Origin: a virus
Lineage: Duplodnaviria > Caudoviricetes
IMG/VR virus record: IMGVR_UViG_3300031892_000001
Coordinates: 1 to 50,435 of that record
Strand: one strand, 5' to 3'
DNA: 50,435 nucleotides
The translations under genes and the position numbers were made by a program. Under the pieces are notes generated by a model that worked only from the letters and a program-made list of their open reading frames with translations, was not told where the DNA came from and searched no databases. The first letter of the stretch is position 1, and each line of letters starts with the position of its first letter. Positions 3,974 to 45,152 of the stretch are shown piece after piece.

Positions 3974-6946
3974 ATGGCCACGAAGCCGCTCACCTACAAG
4001 CTCGGCATGGACATCGGCGAACTGGTTCGCAACGCCGAGAAGGTGGGTGGGGTTACTCGCAAGCAGCAGCAGGAGTTCCGGAAACTGCAGCAGCAGCAGC
4101 GGGAACACCGGGCGGCGTTGTCCGAGCTCGGCACCGGCATGCTCACGTTCGGTGCCGCGGCGACGGTCGGTATGGGCTTGGCGATCCGTGAGGCGATCAA
4201 GTGGGAGTCGGCGTTCGCCGGTGTCCGCAAGACCGTCGACGGGTCGGACGAGGAAATCGCCGCACTCGAAGGAGAACTTCGCGGGTTGGCCCGCACCTTG
4301 CCTGCGACGCATGAGGAGATCGCGGCGGTTGCCGAGGCAGCCGGCCAGTTGGGTATCAAGCGGCAGGACGTTGCCCAATTCACCAAAACCATGATCGATC
4401 TCGGTGAGACGACGAACCTGTCCGCCGAGGAGGCAGCGACCGCGCTCGCGAAGTTCTCCAACATCATGGGCACCAGCGCATCCGATGTGGACCGTTTGGG
4501 GTCGGCGTTGGTGGCGCTCGGCAACGACGGCGCCTCCACGGAGAAAGACATCATCGAGATGGCACTCCGCATCGCCGGCGCGGGCCACCAGATCGGGATG
4601 ACCGAGGCGCAAGTGCTGGCGTTCGCGTCCGCGCTGTCGTCGGTGGGTATCGAAGCGGAGGCAGGCGGCTCATCGTTCTCCGGTGTCATGATCTCCATGT
4701 CGGCTGCGGTGAACGACGGCAGCGAGAAGCTGGAGTCGTTCGCGAAGATCGCCGGCGTATCCACAGAGCGGTTCGCCACCAAGTTCCGGGTGGACGCGGC
4801 CGGCGCGGTGCAGTTGTTCATCTCCGGGCTGGGGAAGCTGCAGGCTTCCGGCGCCGACGTGTTCGGGATCCTCAACGAGCTCGGGTTCTCCGAGATCCGG
4901 GTTCGTGACGCGCTGCTGCGCGCGTCGGGTGCCGCGGACTTGTTCACGGACAGTTTGAAGACGGGGTCGGCGGCGTGGGCGGAGAACACTGCGCTCAGCG
5001 AGGAAGCGGCGAAGCGGTACCAGACCACTGAAGCCCAGATGCAAATGGCGGCCAACGCGATCAAGGACGCGGCCATCGACATCGGTGCCGTGCTGCTGCC
5101 GATCGTACAAGGCGGTGTCGAGGTCATCCGCGACCTGGTCACCTGGTTCCAGAACCTGCCTGGCCCGATGAAGACCGTTGTCACCGTGATCGGCGCGGTG
5201 GCAGGTGGCGTAGCACTGCTCGGCGGGGCCGCGCTGGTGGCTGCACCGAAGGTGCTCGCGTTCCGCGAATCGATGACCACTATGGCGTCGGCAGGTGGCC
5301 GCGTCTCGGGTGCACTCGGCAAGATGGGGTTGTTCCTGGCTGGTCCGTGGGGGATCGCGATCGGTGCCGCGGTCACACTGCTGGGATTGTTCGCGGCCAA
5401 GTCGGGTGAGGCGGCGCAGCGCCAGGCGGAGACGGCGGCTAGCGCCAAAGAGGTAGCGGCGATCATCGCTGAACAGAACGGTCAGATCAACGAGTCCGTG
5501 ATCGCCGCGCAGGCGAAGCAGCTCGCCGACGACGGCGTGTTGAAACTGGCGCGGGAGCTCGGCATCGAGGGCGGCAAGGTCACTGAGGCGGTGCTGGGGC
5601 AGGGCAACGCGTACGAGGAACTCACGGGGAAGCTGAAGGAGAAGGCCGACCTCGACGGCTTGAACCTGAACAAGGAGGGGCAGCTTCTTGCCGCGATCAT
5701 CGCCCGCAGGGAGGGGTTGGTGGCCGCGAACCAGGCGATCGGCGACGCGAAGGCTGCGACCGAGGGGGCGACTGGGGCGAACGCGGAGAACGCGGAGTCG
5801 ACGCAGAAGGTTGCGGATGCCGCGAAGGAGGCTGCGGACGCGCTCGATGGCATGGTCGACGCTCTGGACGAGCTCAACGGTGTGACGCTGTCGCATCGGG
5901 AGGCGCAGCGGAAACTGGTGCAGACGGTCGACGACGCGAATGAGGCGTTCAAGGGCAACAAGAAGACGCTGGACATTCACACCGCGGCCGGTATGGAGAA
6001 CGCTGAAACTCTGGACGGTGTCGCGTCCGCCATGAACGCCGCCGCTGAAGCAGCGGCCCGCGAAGCAGAAGCGACCGGTGGGGCGGCGGCAGGTAACGCG
6101 GCGTTGCGTTCCTCGTTGGAGACGTCGAGGCAGCAGCTGTTCAACATGGCCAAGCAGTTCTTCAAGACCGAAGACCAGGCCTGGGCCTACGTGGACAGTG
6201 TGCTGGCGATTCCCGCCGAGGCGGAAACATTCGTCACCACGCCCGGCTCGCCGGAGGCGAAAGCCGAGCTGGAGAACGTGTTCAACCGGGTGAAGAACAT
6301 CCCGCCGAAGAAGGAAGTGAACGTCGGCGTCCTGTCGTCGACCGCGATCAAAAAGCTGGAGGACATCGGGTTCAAAGTCCGCAAACTGCCGGACGGGTCG
6401 GTGACGGTGTCGGCGCAAACCGCGGGCGCGCAGAGGGCGCTGGACAACTTCATTGGCCGCAACTACGGCAGGCAGATCCCTATCAGGATTCAGGCGACTG
6501 GTGTGGTGAACCAGGTCGGCGGCAAGATGTTCTTGGGCAACGCGATGGGTGGCGTCGTCAAACACTTCGCGCAGGGCGGGTTCGAGAACCACCAGCCGAT
6601 GGTCGCCCGCGCTGTGCCGGGCACGGTGCGGGTGTGGGCGGAGGAAGAAACCGCCGCCGAGTCCTACATCCCGTGGGCGATGGACCGACGCGGCCGCGCC
6701 ACTGGGGTGTTGAGGGAGACAGCCGACGAGTTCGGGTTCTGGCTTGTGCCGAAGTCGCAGATGGTTCGGGCGTTCGGGTACGGCGGCGTGTCAGGGCAGA
6801 CCGGGGGTGGGTCCGTGCCGGGCGACGTCAACGTGCAGGTGTTCATCGGCGAGCGGGAACTCACCGACATCGTCGACGTCCGCATCACCCACAGCAACAG
6901 GCAGACCCGACGGAACATCGTGTCCGGGTCAGGGAACACGCGGTGA
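3974..6946 (+). CDS. Tape measure protein (TP901 family)
   Basis: 990 aa, Ala-rich and helical; WESAFAGVRKTVDG and VDRLGSALVALGN TP901-type core. Confidence 0.95.
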   Translation: MATKPLTYKLGMDIGELVRNAEKVGGVTRKQQQEFRKLQQQQREHRAALSELGTGMLTFGAAATVGMGLAIREAIKWESAFAGVRKTVDGSDEEIAALEGELRGLARTLPATHEEIAAVAEAAGQLGIKRQDVAQFTKTMIDLGETTNLSAEEAATALAKFSNIMGTSASDVDRLGSALVALGNDGASTEKDIIEMALRIAGAGHQIGMTEAQVLAFASALSSVGIEAEAGGSSFSGVMISMSAAVNDGSEKLESFAKIAGVSTERFATKFRVDAAGAVQLFISGLGKLQASGADVFGILNELGFSEIRVRDALLRASGAADLFTDSLKTGSAAWAENTALSEEAAKRYQTTEAQMQMAANAIKDAAIDIGAVLLPIVQGGVEVIRDLVTWFQNLPGPMKTVVTVIGAVAGGVALLGGAALVAAPKVLAFRESMTTMASAGGRVSGALGKMGLFLAGPWGIAIGAAVTLLGLFAAKSGEAAQRQAETAASAKEVAAIIAEQNGQINESVIAAQAKQLADDGVLKLARELGIEGGKVTEAVLGQGNAYEELTGKLKEKADLDGLNLNKEGQLLAAIIARREGLVAANQAIGDAKAATEGATGANAENAESTQKVADAAKEAADALDGMVDALDELNGVTLSHREAQRKLVQTVDDANEAFKGNKKTLDIHTAAGMENAETLDGVASAMNAAAEAAAREAEATGGAAAGNAALRSSLETSRQQLFNMAKQFFKTEDQAWAYVDSVLAIPAEAETFVTTPGSPEAKAELENVFNRVKNIPPKKEVNVGVLSSTAIKKLEDIGFKVRKLPDGSVTVSAQTAGAQRALDNFIGRNYGRQIPIRIQATGVVNQVGGKMFLGNAMGGVVKHFAQGGFENHQPMVARAVPGTVRVWAEEETAAESYIPWAMDRRGRATGVLRETADEFGFWLVPKSQMVRAFGYGGVSGQTGGGSVPGDVNVQVFIGERELTDIVDVRITHSNRQTRRNIVSGSGNTR

Positions 6947-11900: not shown

Positions 11901-12244
11901 TCGCCTGGCTCGCTTCACTGTCCACGGCGTACCGCGTGCTGGTGTATGTGCTGCTGGGTGAGGGGATCGTCGCGTGTTGGGTTTTCGTGGCGCTGTACTC
12001 GTTCAGCTACCGGTGGTGGCGCAACAGCGTGGGCCGTCACCTGGTGGCGTTGTCGGCGTGTCTCGGCGCGTTCCTCACCTACTACGGGTTGCTGGTTTTC
12101 TGGCCGGACATGCCCGGCCGGGACGTGATCCGGGGTGTGCTGTTCGTGACGCTGATCGTTGTGATCAACCAGAGGCTGTGGGTGTTCGGCCGGTACGACC
12201 TGGCCCGGAGACGGGAGCAGCGGAGGCGGGGGGAGGACGCATGA
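11897..12244 (+). CDS. Putative holin (3 TM)
   Basis: Three hydrophobic segments, WWRNSVGRHL motif, basic tail; immediately before the endolysin. Confidence 0.7.
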   Translation: MIAWLASLSTAYRVLVYVLLGEGIVACWVFVALYSFSYRWWRNSVGRHLVALSACLGAFLTYYGLLVFWPDMPGRDVIRGVLFVTLIVVINQRLWVFGRYDLARRREQRRRGEDA

Positions 12245-16441: not shown

Positions 16442-16500
16442 GTTACGCAAGGCGAAGTATTCACTAATTCCCAGTGACAGGTCTCGGTTAGGGTGTGGTC

Positions 16501-17349
16501 ATGGCGACCAGTTGGCGGGCACGCGCTCTCAAGGCGGTGCTGAACTCTGCGCTTGAGCAGTCGGGTGCGTCCGCCCGCGAGGTCGCCCGCCAGCTCGGCA
16601 TCTCCCACACCAAGGTCAACCGGTGGCTCGGCAAGGAAGGCCCCGCCCCGAACGCCGAAGACACGGCCGCGTTCCTCGCCCGGATCGAGGTCACCGGCCC
16701 CGAGCGGGACCGGATCCTCTCGATCGCGCGGGCCGCGGACTCAGACCTCATCGTGTCCGGCCCGCCCGGAATCAACCCGCAGCTCGCGACCGTCCTCGAG
16801 TGTGAGCGGTTCGCGACGCGGATCTTCGAGTTCAACCTGGTGTGGTGGCCTGGCCTGCTGCAGTGCAGCGACTACGCCCGCGCGGTGATCTCCCAGGACG
16901 ACACCGCCAGCGCCAACGAGGTCGAGACCCGGGTACTGATCCGCAACGCCCGCCGCGACATCCTGACCCGGCGCCTCAGCCCGGTCCGGTTCGACGCTGT
17001 CATCAGCCCGGTCGCCATCAACGGCGGGTTCGTCGGCGACGACGTTCGGGCTGCTCAGCTCGAGCACGTGCAGGAACTGACCAAGCACGACAACGTCACC
17101 GTCCAGCTCGCCACGATCGGCGACACCTGGACGCCCAGCGCACCGTTCATCGTCTACGAGTTCGACGACGACATGCCCACGACCGTGTACCTCGAGGGTT
17201 CGTGGTCGAGCACGTTCATCGTCGACCAGGACGTGGTGCGCAACTATCAGGCCGCGGCGGAGACCCTCCGCCGGGTAGCGATGAGCCCAACTGCGACGGC
17301 CGGGCTCATCGCTGACGCCATCCCGCGCAGCAGCTTGGAGACGACGTAG
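16501..17349 (+). CDS. WhiJ/Scr1-like XRE regulator with DUF5753 domain
   Basis: N-terminal HTH; E..ATRI..F....PGLLQ..DYARAVI, R..R..IL, QLEH and YLE motifs; followed by DUF397. Confidence 0.9.
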   Translation: MATSWRARALKAVLNSALEQSGASAREVARQLGISHTKVNRWLGKEGPAPNAEDTAAFLARIEVTGPERDRILSIARAADSDLIVSGPPGINPQLATVLECERFATRIFEFNLVWWPGLLQCSDYARAVISQDDTASANEVETRVLIRNARRDILTRRLSPVRFDAVISPVAINGGFVGDDVRAAQLEHVQELTKHDNVTVQLATIGDTWTPSAPFIVYEFDDDMPTTVYLEGSWSSTFIVDQDVVRNYQAAAETLRRVAMSPTATAGLIADAIPRSSLETT

Positions 17350-17531
17350 TGACCGTACCGCAGAACCAGATGAGGTGGCGCAAGTCGAGCCGGTCAGCGG
17401 AGCAGGGGGCGTGCGTTGAGCTGTCCCCGTTCGGCGCGGTCCGCGACAGCAAGACCCCGGAGGCCCCTCACCTCGAGGTATCGCTGTCCGGCCTGCTGGC
17501 CGCGGTGAAGGCGGACCGCCTGACCCGCTAA
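17349..17531 (+). CDS. DUF397 protein (BldB/Scr2-like)
   Basis: WRKSSRS....ACVEL...AVRDSK.P signature. Confidence 0.92.
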   Translation: MTVPQNQMRWRKSSRSAEQGACVELSPFGAVRDSKTPEAPHLEVSLSGLLAAVKADRLTR

Positions 17532-40840: not shown

Positions 40841-41139
40841 CGAGCACATGCGAGATGGAGTCGTGCCCGAACTGGTCCGGAGACGGCGAAGTCTGCCCGT
40901 GCGCCGTGTTCGACCTCGGACGCCCTGCCCGGCCGCGCAGCTACTGCGAGGGCGACTACCGGCCGCCCGGATCCGACCATGCCGACGTGTGCTTTGCCAC
41001 GCTCAACGCGCGCGGCGAGTGCACGCGTACCGGCGGCTGGCATGACCCTGACACGGGCCTGTGGGTCCGTCACGGCGAGACAGCCGAGGACGCTGTCGCG
41101 GCGGCTCTCCGAGGAGACCAGCCAGAAGCCGGGTCGTGA
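40837..41139 (+). CDS. Cys-rich hypothetical protein
   Basis: ATGA-coupled 100-aa ORF. Confidence 0.55.
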   Translation: MTSTCEMESCPNWSGDGEVCPCAVFDLGRPARPRSYCEGDYRPPGSDHADVCFATLNARGECTRTGGWHDPDTGLWVRHGETAEDAVAAALRGDQPEAGS

Positions 41140-41147
41140 TCTTGGTG

Positions 41148-41333
41148 TCAGTCAGAGGACGAACGCTCAGGCGGCCGACGAACAGTGACGCCGGGTGTGC
41201 GGGAGTACCAGAGCACGAGGGTTCGGAGCATGACGTGCGGGTCGACGTCGGCCGTCTCGCAGGCAGCGGCGAACCGCTTCCACGGCTCATCGGCCATGCG
41301 GAAGGTGCGCTTGTCGTGACCCTGGTTCGGCAC
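41148..41333 (-). CDS. Ribbon-helix-helix (CopG/Arc-like) regulator
   Basis: MPNQ...RTFRMADEPWKRFAAAC......MLRTLVLWY..PG...RP pattern. Confidence 0.7.
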   Translation of the reverse strand: MPNQGHDKRTFRMADEPWKRFAAACETADVDPHVMLRTLVLWYSRTPGVTVRRPPERSSSD

Positions 41334-41349
41334 GCACCCCACCTTACCT

Positions 41350-41408
41350 GGTGGTACCACCTCCCGCCTAGAAACTCGCCGCGCAGGGTGGCGTAGGTGG
41401 TACCACCT
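41350..41408. promoter_or_regulatory. Two copies of palindrome GGTGGTACCACC, probable RHH operators
   Basis: Exact 12-bp palindrome at 41350-41361 and 41396-41407 in the divergent intergenic region. Confidence 0.75.
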
Positions 41409-41454
41409 GAGATAGCATGAGCAGGCAACACGGGATCAAAACCAGGGAGTCGCA

Positions 41455-42036
41455 GTGACCATGATCGACCAGCTGAACCAGGCCGAGACCGACGACCGCG
41501 TCTTCACCTTCCGCAGCTCGACCGGCGCCACGGTCCTGTTCGACCGGATCACCGGCCAGTCCTGCGCGGTCGCCCGCACCTGCCCCATGACGGGTGGCGA
41601 CAACTGCGACGGTGCGGACGCGGTCAACTGCCCGGCCTGCTGACCGACCGGGGCCCGTGTCGGGGCGGGCCCCAACCCCCCTGATCTACGAGGAGTGAGA
41701 CATGGCAGAGACCGACACCTACGGGTTCACGGCGACGCGTGAGGGCGACACGATCCAGGTCGCCGACAACCAGGGCGGCGGCACGGCGTTTGTCGCGGGC
41801 ACGCGCGCCGACGCGGCGGAGGGCATCCGCCGCTACATGGATGGCCTGGTCCGCGAGTTCGCCGACGAGATGGCCGAGGAGCTGTTCGGCGACGACCCGG
41901 ACGGCTACACCGACGAGGACTGATCCAGCACGCCGAGGAGGACGGCATGTGCACCAACCGCAAACCCCACCAGCCCCACACCTACCCGATGTACCGGTGG
42001 TTCACCAAGTTCTGGTTCCACTGCCCCGGCCGCTGA
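41455..42036 (+). other. Three small genes: 41455-41643 (Cys-rich), 41702-41923 (acidic), 41947-42036 (29 aa, MCTNRKPHQPHTYPMYRWFTKFWFHCPGR)
   Basis: Each has a GGAG/GAGGAG RBS; they precede tnpB. Confidence 0.6.
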
Positions 42037-42053
42037 GCAAGGAGAACAGAGAC

Positions 42054-43451
42054 ATGGCGATCCAGGCGTACCTCTTCGCGCTTGACCCGACCGATCATCA
42101 GGTCGAGGTCATGCGCTCGCACTGCGGTGCGCAGAGGTACGCCTACAACTGGTGCCTCGCCCAGGTGAAGGCCAACTGGGCGCAGCGAGCTGCGGAGCAG
42201 ACCTACGGCCTGACCGGCGACCAGTTGACGCCGTGGATCGATACCTCTGCCTACAGCCTTCGCAAGGCCTGGAACGCGGCCAAGCAGCGCGTCGCTCCAT
42301 GGTGGTCGGAGAACTCGAAGGAGGCCTACGCTTCCGGGTGCGCCAACCTGGCGACCGCGCTCCGCAACTGCAAGGCAGGGCGTGCGCGTATGCCGCGGTT
42401 CAAGGCCAAGCACCGCGGGCGGCAGTCGTGCCGCTTCACCACCGGCGGGTTTGGGCTCGGCGCGGATCGGCGTCACATCCGACTGCCGGTCATCGGCGCC
42501 GTGAGGACCGCCGAGTCCGCCCGGAAGCTGGCCCGGAAGGTTGAGACGGGTCATGCGCGGATCCGGTCGGCGACGCTGTCGTTCCAGCGCGGCCGGTGGC
42601 ACGTCTCGTTCTCGGTCGAGGTCGACAGCCTCGACCCAGTGCAACGCCTCGGTGGCGTGGCGGTGGGGGTGGACCTCGGCATCAAGTCGCTGGCGACACT
42701 CTCGACTGGCGAGCAGGTGCCGAACCCGCGCCGTCTGGATGCCGTTCTCCAGAGACTCCGCCGCGCTCAGCGGGTCGCTGCGCGACGTCGAGGACCGGAC
42801 CGCAGGAAAGGCGTGGGGCCGTCCAACCGGTGGCGCAAGGCCAGAGCGCGAGCTGACCGGATCTACACCCGGGTGGCGAACCTGCGCCGGAACGACACCC
42901 ACCAACTGACATCCCGGCTCGTGCGGGACTTCGACACGGTCGTGATCGAGGACCTGCACGTCGCGGGGATGCTCCGCAACCGTCGCCTGGCCCGGCACAT
43001 CACCGGGGCAGCGTGGGCGGAGATCCGCCGACAGCTCGCCTACAAGGCCGAACGTGCGGGCGTCCGGTTGATCGTGGCGGATCGCTGGTTCGCCAGTAGC
43101 AAGACGTGCTCGGGGTGCGGGACAGCGAAAGCCAAGCTGGCCCTGTCCGAGCGGACCTACGTGTGTACCGCCTGCGGACTCGTTCTGGACCGGGACGAGA
43201 ACGCGGCGAGGAACCTGGCCGCTCTGGCCAGCGCCGGCGAGTTGCGCCGGGAGCAGCCCGACAGAACTGATGTCAGACCGGCGCGGCTCGCCGCGGCCGG
43301 CAGTCAGACCGCTGCGGGAAGAGCCACGCGCTCAACGTCGGCGCCGCGAGGAGCTGACTCGAACGGTGTCGTTGTGAGTGGGTGCCTACTGGCTGGTGCC
43401 ATGCGGGGCCGATCTGAACGGCCCGATCTGAACGGAGGCGAACAGGAATGA
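42054..43451 (+). CDS. tnpB: RNA-guided endonuclease TnpB (IS607-type)
   Basis: AYLFALDPT HTH, PWWSENSKEAY, RuvC-I VGVDLG, RuvC-II VIEDL, zinc ribbon SKTCSGCG...CTACG, RuvC-III DRDENAARNL; AAGGAG RBS. Confidence 0.93.
   Translation: MAIQAYLFALDPTDHQVEVMRSHCGAQRYAYNWCLAQVKANWAQRAAEQTYGLTGDQLTPWIDTSAYSLRKAWNAAKQRVAPWWSENSKEAYASGCANLATALRNCKAGRARMPRFKAKHRGRQSCRFTTGGFGLGADRRHIRLPVIGAVRTAESARKLARKVETGHARIRSATLSFQRGRWHVSFSVEVDSLDPVQRLGGVAVGVDLGIKSLATLSTGEQVPNPRRLDAVLQRLRRAQRVAARRRGPDRRKGVGPSNRWRKARARADRIYTRVANLRRNDTHQLTSRLVRDFDTVVIEDLHVAGMLRNRRLARHITGAAWAEIRRQLAYKAERAGVRLIVADRWFASSKTCSGCGTAKAKLALSERTYVCTACGLVLDRDENAARNLAALASAGELRREQPDRTDVRPARLAAAGSQTAAGRATRSTSAPRGADSNGVVVSGCLLAGAMRGRSERPDLNGGEQE
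43225..43440 (+). ncRNA. Putative omegaRNA overlapping the tnpB 3' end
   Basis: Inferred from TnpB biology. The protein tail after RuvC-III is non-conserved, the region has hairpins, and there are three GAACGG candidate right ends; boundaries uncertain. Confidence 0.5.
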
Positions 43452-45152
43452 GCGACCTGGTACCCGAAGAAGCGATCGAGCGGGCGTCGTACCGGCTAGC
43501 GGGCCGGTTCCGGGGCGACGAAGGCCAGTGGCGTGGCTACACGGACGCGGCGGAGGTGGCGTTGGAGGCTGCGGCTCCGCTGATCCTGGCCGCCGAACTG
43601 GACCGGCTGGCGGACGACCTCGCTGCGCAGGTGGAGGAGACGCTAGTCGTTGCGCGCCGGTTGAAGGCGGGCAAGGACGGCGTGACCGTGTCGTCGGCGG
43701 ACCTGTTCGCGGAGGCGCAAGGCATGGAGCGGGCCGCGCATGAACTTCGGGTGCGGGCTTCTGTGTTGCGTGGGGAAGGACACCGAAATGACTGACCTGG
43801 CGGCCAAGATCCGGAACAGCGCGCTGCTGCAACCGCGCGCTCTTCCCGCCGACTACCACTACGACGTGCTTCGCCTCCAAGCGGCACTCACCGACGTGCT
43901 CGACATCCACAAGCCGGTGGAGTGGTTCGAGGAGTGCACGCTGCACCAGATGCCGATGGACGACGACCCCGGCCACGACGAGTACTGGGACACCCACCGG
44001 TACGTCGGCCCCGAGGCGGACATGGTGGCGTGCGACGAGACGAAGGTGGCGGACTGCTGCGTGTCCTGCACGCCGAAGCGCACAGAGGACGACAGTGACC
44101 TCGTGGTCTGGCCGTGCCCCACTGTCGTTGCCGTCGCTGCTGCTCTTGGTGTCCGAGAAGACGGACCGGAAGGCGAGTGAGCGATGAGTGATCTTGCGGA
44201 GTCGATGGTGGACGCCGCCGCGCGGGAGGTTGCGCGGATGATGCACCGCGGTGACCCGTCGGCGCGCGCGATCGCCGCTGAGGTCGTCGCCATGACCGTC
44301 GAGCGACTGGACCAGGAGGTCAGCTGGCGGGCCTTGGGTGACGGGGAGCCGGTCGAGCTTGGGCCGCTGGCGGTCGAAGTCCGGGAGGGCTGACGTGCCT
44401 ACTGCTTGGGGTGCTGGTCAGGTCACGGACTGCGGACGGACAGTGGGAGCAGCAGCCGGGAACACGTCGGCGGTGCGTGCGGCGGCGGTGAGGGCTGTGG
44501 CTTCGGCTGCGGTGGATGCGGACGACGCGCGACGCCTGCTCGATCAGCTCGGGCTGTCGGCGGTTGAGGGTCGGGACGGAACGGAGAAGGTGGCATGACG
44601 GACACGCCGATCAAGCGCGGGACCGCGCGTCGCATGGGACTAGCGCATCCCGATGACTACGTCTCGGTACACGTCCTGCCGGACCTCGCCCGGTTGGGGC
44701 AGTCGCTCCGCGCAGCGATGGCGCGAGCCGGGACGCAGCCGCCGCCGATCGAAGGGGGGCGAGGCCCTCACGACCGTCCACGAGCGGATCAAGGTCACCC
44801 GCTGGTGACCGTGTGCCCGGAGCGGTTCTCGCGTCCCGGCCACGACCGGGACGTCCTCAACGCGATGTGGTCGCAGGTCCAGTTGGGCCGACCGCTCAGC
44901 AAGATCCAGGTAGAGCACCTGCTGCAGATCGTGTGGAGAGCGGGGGCGACCGCCGAACACGACCTGATGTACGAGGGCGTCACCGAGGGCTGCCGACCGC
45001 TGTTCGACTACGCGAGGGTGCTGGCTCAGACCGGCAGTTCGGGTGACCGGTTCGTCTGGTGCGTGGCGCGGGTGTACGGCCCGACCCTGCGGTGGCGTGA
45101 CCGGCTGCGTCTCGCGGTGTACCTGGCGTTCCGTAAGGGGTACTCGCGGTGA
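43448..45152 (+). other. Hypothetical genes: 43448-43795, 43788-44180 (CxxC..WPCPT), 44184-44393, 44395-44598, 44595-45152
   Basis: Coupled ORFs continuing the early operon. Confidence 0.6.

Follow-up and report, generated by a model that had tools for sequence, protein, structure and literature searches.

A transposase-free IS607-type TnpB in a phage accessory cassette and the match of its predicted guide to related phages

The DNA analysed here, called the window below, is one virus record of 50.4 kb (IMGVR_UViG_3300031892_000001, Caudoviricetes; 50,435 nucleotides), and the feature studied is 41148..43451 with its flanks: a cassette of small phage genes closed by tnpB, which encodes an IS607-type TnpB, and by the region of its guide RNA (omegaRNA). 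We propose that this is an immobilised IS607 tnpB with its guide-RNA region in a generic phage cassette, and that it acts, or recently acted, as a selfish RNA-guided nuclease against related phages with an empty gene junction. From the comparisons below we give this reading about an even chance. It is carried by the predicted guide, which has 17/17 targets flanked by a putative target-adjacent motif (TAM) in two tnpB-free phages, G405 and G406, and none in the window contig. The parts of the element are as follows.

42037..42053, + strand: 17-nt spacer with a phage-type ribosome-binding site (RBS), the gap between a 29-aa open reading frame (ORF) and the tnpB ATG, standing where an IS607 element has its left end and tnpA
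42054..43451, + strand: tnpB, IS607-type, 465 aa (ORF, Pfam, NCBIfam, alignment)
43218..43366, + strand: omegaRNA scaffold and IS607 right end, ending in GAACGG (covariance model); a 30-nt terminal hairpin is deleted between 43360 and 43361
43367..43383, + strand: predicted guide, matching a TAM-flanked gene junction in G405 and G406 at 17/17 positions
43409..43435, + strand: 13-nt tandem repeat (43409-43421 and 43423-43435) ending in GAACGG and adjoining the RBS of the next gene; possible but unsupported alternative 3' ends

The predicted guide and its targets

No match to tnpB was found in G405, a complete phage contig of 62 kb, or in G406, a viral contig of 48.5 kb; both have genes in common with the window, at up to 82% nucleotide identity. 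The guide match has its first mismatch at position 18, reaches 23/24 with the flank and has GGGGG in front of it; in G405 it lies at position 12001 on the minus strand. Exact copies of the guide 17-mer occur in six viral contigs, and the four besides G405 and G406 are without a G-rich flank or extension. When all 50,417 19-mers of the window are compared, 27 recur exactly in G405 and 25 in G406, and the guide block is one of the three common to both. Among INPHARED phages the guide region is unmatched.

The TAM of the window TnpB was deduced from 13 left-end flanks, each of which finishes with a run of purines whose last two letters are GG; the TAMs published for IS607 elements, TGGG and GAGGG, are similar (PMC10690162, PMC11061315). 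No TAM-flanked copy of the guide, that is no self-target, was found in the window. The target junction is an RBS with an overlapping stop and start. The protein sequence of P0003, a homologue 82% identical to the window TnpB, ends in RTVSL-stop, the same ending as in an alternative frame of the window, and therefore the right flank likely predates the 18% protein divergence. The original prediction, made from the letters of the window, had proposed that related phages be compared for an empty site and that the guide be searched against host and phage genomes. Cassettes free of tnpB exist in G405 and in a prophage of G298, the matching junction is present in G405 and G406, and inter-phage competition, one of the functions it had suggested, gains direct support from the TAM-flanked matches.

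We envisage the following course. In a phage of this group, a G-rich gene junction resembling an RBS would have received an IS607 element, and this insertion would have fixed the guide. The left end and tnpA of the element have given way to a phage RBS, and its terminal hairpin has been deleted; transposition was presumably lost. The gene would now be transcribed with the cassette once the local repressor releases. In a mixed infection, putative cleavage of the empty junction would lead to homing if the flanks are homologous and to marker exclusion if they are not, as in G405.

The target sites of G405 and G406 (L154 and L156, near position 1500) have a junction of about 35 nt in common although their upstream genes are unrelated, one of them being GmrSD_N-like. 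The genes downstream of this junction are alike only in their first and last residues, and short gene ends common to different genes in this way recur across these phages.

The PHROG search found a tape measure gene and an integrase in the window, which therefore represents a temperate siphovirus. The head-gene region of the related phage G002 is missing from the contig, so the record is incomplete. Its closest prophage relative among 401 Pseudonocardiaceae genomes lies in G298, and for this reason the host likely belongs to that family.

The same 401 genomes bear on the suggestion, also made in the original prediction, that the nuclease is aimed at the host, either as a cutter of host DNA or as a regulator like the phage-borne TldR proteins. 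A 17-mer within one mismatch of the guide is present in 58 of them, above the reversed control. However, only one of the 401 has an exact match, the matches are scattered over unrelated loci, and the ones examined proved to be generic gene ends that have this stop-start motif in common. No conserved host target, including any conserved host promoter, was found in this set. Further, the RuvC triad is intact, unlike that of TldR, and the best matches lie in phages. We therefore hold host targeting to be improbable.

Protein, mobility and guide RNA

The TnpB protein has Pfam matches to OrfB_IS605, Cas12f1-like_TNB and HTH_OrfB_IS605, and scores 479.5 bits against the NCBIfam model IS607_TnpB (NF038280; cut-off 350). 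The three RuvC acidic residues read earlier from the translation, D207 (VDLG), E299 (IEDL) and D381 (DRD), are invariant in an alignment of 21 sequences, as are the four zinc-ribbon cysteines, so that the identification as a catalytically equipped IS607-type TnpB holds. D207 and E299 align with D191 and E278 of ISDra2 TnpB, which we take to be catalytic residues. The final ~70 aa of the ORF are read-through across the omegaRNA and beyond, not nuclease domain. This tail is the longest among 120 homologues, reaching 87 aa past DRD (mode 57-61).

The protein belongs to a large clade of actinobacterial IS607 TnpBs, with 5,167 proteins at E<=1e-50 (7,999 scored). TnpB genes are frequent in phages, 413 of 50,697 phage records having a match. 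No near-identical copy was found among the proteins scored, the best other one being the 82% identical P0003. An N-terminal MAI occurs in just two others of the 120 homologues, P0003 and P0077, each of which carries a long read-through tail. In a 27-protein tree these two group with the window protein (85/87, bootstrap unsettled), and G002 is not firmly placed in it; the 120-protein tree leaves the sister of the window TnpB unresolved.

Turning to mobility, the absence of a tnpA is borne out by tblastn, with no match at E<=1 in the window, itself an incomplete contig. The absence of a left end is likewise borne out, as the IS607 left-end motif was not found in 41100-42060 (best match with 6/18 mismatches) and there is only the 17-nt gap before the start codon. 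The right end still closes in GG, as GAACGG at 43361-43366. However, its right-end motif agrees with the clade consensus at only 10/17 positions, and that of G002 at 9/17, compared with 15-17/17 in five tnpA-bearing relatives; some solo chromosomal copies are equally low (8-13/17). The deleted part bears a motif that mirrors the left end as its reverse complement. TnpA binding on the right end of IS1535 covers bp 10-28 (PMC6188088), and the TnpA of the Cbo IStron requires the last 39 nt (PMC13521648). Because the left end is absent and the right-end hairpin is deleted, where known TnpAs need the subterminal right end, the window element is very likely immobile at both ends, as far as its sequence tells.

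These findings largely refute an ordinary non-autonomous IS607 moved by a transposase in trans, to which we assign next to no probability. It would fit that the right end closes in CGG and that relatives at 76-81% identity lie in full IS607 elements, one of them in a phage contig (L125:3340-5355, a complete IS607 of the same clade with tnpA, tnpB and both ends). However, the left-end motif is missing, the right-end motif has decayed in the part required by TnpA, and a second copy was not found: the covariance model gives a single omegaRNA match in the window. Near-identical copies with IS ends at many loci, which the original prediction had named as the mark of such an element, did not appear among the proteins scored or elsewhere in the window. 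The complete element in L125 does show a route by which the clade enters phages.

The consensus fold of the omegaRNA was derived from an alignment of 14 relatives, and the covariance model was built without the window. Compensatory changes support 32 of its 52 pairs. The model matches 43218-43367 with 128.9 bits (E 6e-34), with the last hairpin removed by an exact 30-nt deletion. Of the 38 pairs in the remaining core 37 are canonical, and GUUG and CAAC, two motifs complementary to each other, are retained. Between the window and G002, 4/38 core pairs have changed on both sides with pairing kept. Rfam gave no match at its gathering score, and a motif for the sub-clade omegaRNA found no match in the metagenome contigs.

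In an 18-row DNA tree the window and G002 tnpB genes are sisters (94/98, short of the starred threshold), and both are solo and coupled to the same downstream gene family. Between them dN is 0.195, dS 1.06 and dN/dS 0.18, compared with dN/dS of 0.22-0.30 in four tnpA-bearing pairs; the estimate for the window branch is 0.13-0.16. A third actinophage contig, of 119 kb, has a solo tnpB (L124:3696-5340) coupled to an upstream phage gene and with a complete omegaRNA and right end. It is an independent capture (p-AU 0.01 against one clade), and its guide has three other matches, one of 24/26, in a seemingly unrelated context. Four of the genomes covered are unpublished: L014 (G004) contributes one row to the RNA model and also enters the trees, the dN/dS comparison and the lists of flanks, and G067, G311 and G341 are present only as pattern hits. 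None of the conclusions rests on these four.

We tentatively extend the proposal to a wider one: that in temperate actinophages IS607 tnpB has been stripped of transposase and ends several times over and is kept in repressor-controlled cassettes as an RNA-guided weapon against related phages, at a recurring gene-junction motif of their mosaic genomes, and that the shortened omegaRNA still works. This is possible, but we would not yet bet on it.

The G002 tnpB lies between direct repeats of 10-12 bp (L122:3998-4024 and 5345-5375). Its left junction, which looks like a spare gene end in miniature, combines a G run with the 8 nt that open its own guide and with a new stop; excising the insert between the repeats would yield a perfect target.

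Several observations weigh against a nuclease at work on related phages. First, the guide match shows origin and not use, because any insertion sequence in a phage has a guide that matches the empty site. The target in G405 lies ~27 kb from the syntenic cassette, only 24 nt are common at the target between the window and G405 or G406, and the three phages may not have a host in common. Homing of the cassette into G405, as suggested earlier, is therefore implausible; a cut there would damage the rival without copying tnpB. Among clade loci with enough upstream DNA, 40/81 are without tnpA and 41/81 with it, and therefore a solo tnpB is not in itself unusual. The right flanks of the window and G002 differ, so that part of the purifying selection may have acted while the element was still a mobile IS, and the G002 guide has seven other exact 17-mer contig matches, none with a G002-like flank. 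The RNA itself adds to this list. The terminal hairpin is present in all other 25 cleanly parsed relatives (survey of 29 rows, three of them parsing artefacts); the consensus fold lies 10-12 kcal/mol above the minimum free energy in the window, compared with 0-5.3 in the 14 relatives, which themselves built the consensus; the guide is predicted to be able to pair with the scaffold; and deleting the 3'-terminal stem-loop (SL5) abolishes cleavage by the Cbo IStron (PMC13521648), a hairpin that may or may not correspond to the one lost in the window.

The loss of the hairpin was missed by the original prediction and puts present activity in doubt. Judged from sequence, the window guide RNA may no longer work, and the element may be decaying, given the missing hairpin and the poor folding of the scaffold in silico. 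It would then be a relic whose guide is an old insertion flank, whose omegaRNA was disabled by the deletion, and whose protein is intact as the loss is recent and a long frame preserves coupling to the gene that follows. Besides the exact hairpin loss, the folding penalty and the SL5 result, the longest read-through tail and the single known copy fit such a relic. However, the scaffold core and its motifs persist, the guide is still 17/17, dN/dS is low on the window branch, and ISFba1 can do without the 21 nt nearest to its guide (PMC11061315), though here too the hairpins need not correspond. We regard a relic as the main rival explanation, possible but doubtful.

Alternatively, the tandem repeat may have rebuilt the terminal hairpin, giving a re-programmed 3' end at 43435 and a guide at 43436-43455 that would cover the next gene's start and its RBS, in the manner of the G002 guide. 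When 43337-43435 is folded alone, both last hairpins are restored with the consensus base, and none of 1000 shuffles gave an equally stable closed stem (37 closed). Further, 43435 lies 13 nt before the downstream family and the end of G002 11 nt before it. However, the hairpin appears only when the fold is cut at 43435. With 20 nt added downstream the stem is gone, its pair probability being ~0 against 0.49-0.9 in eight native ends, and 120/500 shuffles reach as high a pair probability. The guides after the second and third GAACGG have no target; in particular, the one at 43436 has none in the examined stretches of G405, G406, G002, G298 and L124, and 2/381 genomes match it at one mismatch. 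This model was rejected as the best reading, and we consider it unlikely to be right.

A separate pattern was seen in chromosomal members of the clade. A LexA-box-like palindrome (<=2 mismatches) lies within 150 nt upstream of solo tnpB at 11/40 loci (L007, L008, L024, L026, L028, L029, L045, L046, L070, L074 and L082). The background is 17/1,340 windows, and 0/41 at tnpA-bearing loci, where the scanned window is tnpA coding sequence. The consensus used is one that we take to be the actinobacterial LexA box. Chromosomal solo TnpBs of this clade are possibly under SOS control. The palindrome is absent upstream of the three phage tnpB copies, and our literature search found no paper linking TnpB, LexA and IS607.

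The cassette, its regulator and gene coupling

The genes around tnpB and the candidate regulatory sites are these.

41148..41333, - strand: 61-aa likely ribbon-helix-helix (RHH) repressor of the phage cassette; GTG start at 41333 set from homologues (13 homologues, 66-84%)
41350..41361, either strand: 12-bp perfect palindrome, candidate operator 1 (sequence only)
41396..41407, either strand: identical 12-bp palindrome, candidate operator 2, just before a -10-like TAGCAT at 41413-41418 (sequence only)
41461..41643, + strand: cassette gene 1, 60 aa, Cys-rich end, no family (ORF; no Pfam or PHROG match)
41644..41676, + strand: GC-rich hairpin after gene 1, common to the tnpB-free cassettes of G405 and G298 (comparison)
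41702..41923, + strand: cassette gene 2, 73 aa, acidic (ORF)
41947..42036, + strand: cassette gene 3, 29 aa, with a 79% identical copy in the tnpB-free G298 cassette (C288:44719-44805; comparison)
43448..43795, + strand: next phage gene, ATGA-coupled to the tnpB stop; its homologue follows tnpB in G002 (39% over 110 aa, E 6e-13)

Four genes diverge from the gene of the 61-aa protein, tnpB being the last, and this arrangement is as first described. The label RHH for the divergent protein comes from an AlphaFold model, which has a strand-helix-helix order, and from weak Foldseek matches (the PutA RHH at rmsd 1.3 and E 1.6, also the CopASO and ParG RHH). There was no match in Pfam, PHROG or NCBIfam, and an atlas search returned unnamed clusters, with RHH_9 on 16% of one. 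The protein is likely an RHH repressor, as judged from the model. The promoter and terminator scan found no sigma-70 consensus promoter and no terminator, for which reason the cassette promoter is a putative one.

G298 and G405 both have this slot but no tnpB in it; they show there a divergent gene that reads as HTH-type from its sequence, small genes and the hairpin also seen in the window; the G298 version also carries the 29-aa gene and an endonuclease VII gene. In G002 a Phd/YefM-like gene (E 4.5e-4, below cut-off) heads the block that ends in tnpB. In all, four related phages have this syntenic accessory cassette (window 41133-42053, L121:7690-9520, G405:C1:38700-39995 and L122:2830-4020), which swaps both its cargo and its divergent regulator: RHH-like once, HTH-type twice and Phd-like once. 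Thus, by these comparisons, any regulation by the RHH protein would concern a generic cassette to which tnpB was added.

This leaves hardly any room for a dedicated RHH-TnpB module, with Arc-like repression within the element or an RHH antitoxin paired with a TnpB toxin. The RHH-like fold, the paired palindromes upstream of the operon and published precedents (10.64898/2026.09.24.754181; PMC10691335) speak for it. However, three genes lie between RHH and tnpB, the cassettes of G298 and G405 have an HTH-type gene and no tnpB, and the G002 tnpB follows a Phd/YefM-like gene. The RHH as a part of the element was rejected, as RHH and tnpB assort independently in the three phages compared, and with it goes the RHH-wired module of the original prediction.

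That prediction had also seen domestication rather than fresh insertion. The RBS 17 nt after the 29-aa ORF and the ATGA overlap of the tnpB stop with the start of the next gene agree with our coordinates, but they are weak evidence. The coupling follows from IS607 insertion at a G-rich, RBS-like site together with read-through, and was rejected as proof of domestication. That the insertion is not a fresh one is better supported by the lack of a near-identical copy, the loss of the ends that face the transposase and the solo sister with its dN/dS of 0.18.

A few further observations concern the neighbouring genes. The 29-aa product is a Cys/His/aromatic microprotein whose gene occurs in 1/401 genomes, and the phages that bear it are otherwise divergent; motif scans of viral and metagenome contigs gave no match for it. 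For the 73-aa gene and for the gene downstream of tnpB, a search of viral contigs yielded no relatives. Elsewhere in the window, 16495-17531 encodes a 284-aa HTH DNA-binding protein (phrog_9908) followed by a 60-aa gene, a pair that presumably resembles the actinobacterial Xre/DUF397 pair.

Relation to known systems

The locus resembles described IS607 TnpB/omegaRNA systems (CboIStron, PMC10690162, PMC13521648; ISFba1, PMC11061315, PDB 8iaz; IS1535, PMC6188088) in its IS607-type TnpB, an omegaRNA that overlaps a right end closing in CGG, a G-rich TAM-like flank, a guide formed by the right flank and an empty-site target. It differs in having no tnpA, left end or terminal hairpin, and in its phage RBS and operon context. 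With the transposase absent, the usual role of TnpB in retention does not apply, and as the element very likely cannot excise, a restorative role would have no object.

A gene drive by TnpB independent of TnpA has been shown between plasmids (PMC11870625; discussed as non-restorative homing in PMC13565253), and the window TnpB would likewise cut an empty allele on a competing replicon without TnpA. However, the plasmid drive concerns IS200/IS605, while here the element is an IS607 on phages with its ends lost and the activity is predicted from sequence. The free-standing homing endonucleases SegF and SegB of T4 (PMC13565253) are also nuclease genes between phage genes, and the window TnpB would, like them, cut co-infecting relatives and spare its own genome. 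Unlike them it is RNA-guided, and with the G405 target so far from the syntenic slot, exclusion is expected and not co-conversion. As for a homing endonuclease, the target is present in related phages and absent from the window itself, but homologous flanks at the cut are lacking in both phages.

Viral CRISPR mini-arrays in inter-virus competition (PMC11656645) also place an RNA guide on a virus against related viruses. They borrow host Cas proteins, whereas the window carries its nuclease and its guide derives from the flank of an insertion and not from spacer acquisition. The TldR of prophages (10.1101/2023.11.30.569447) is similarly TnpB-derived, immobilised and prophage-borne, but it is nuclease-dead and targets host promoters, while the window has an intact RuvC and a match to phage DNA. 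In Arc-regulated IS605 (10.64898/2026.09.24.754181) and archaeal RHH/MazE-TnpB (PMC10691335) a small RHH protein also lies near tnpB; in the window this protein is part of a phage cassette, other versions of which are free of tnpB and have a different regulator. A cyanophage tnpB is identical to host copies and induced in infection (10.64898/2026.02.14.705889; the available part of the account holds no guide analysis). In the main texts of open papers, our literature search found no description of phage-versus-phage cutting by a transposase-free TnpB.

The locus thus lends itself to testing what keeps TnpBs in phages: it joins a native nuclease and a defined guide with an inferred TAM, and two phages offer natural targets. 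If cleavage proves true, one phage would be cutting another by means of an RNA-guided, transposase-free TnpB, and the actinobacterial IS607 clade would have a natural example of a minimal omegaRNA. If the element is inactive, it would show how such elements die.

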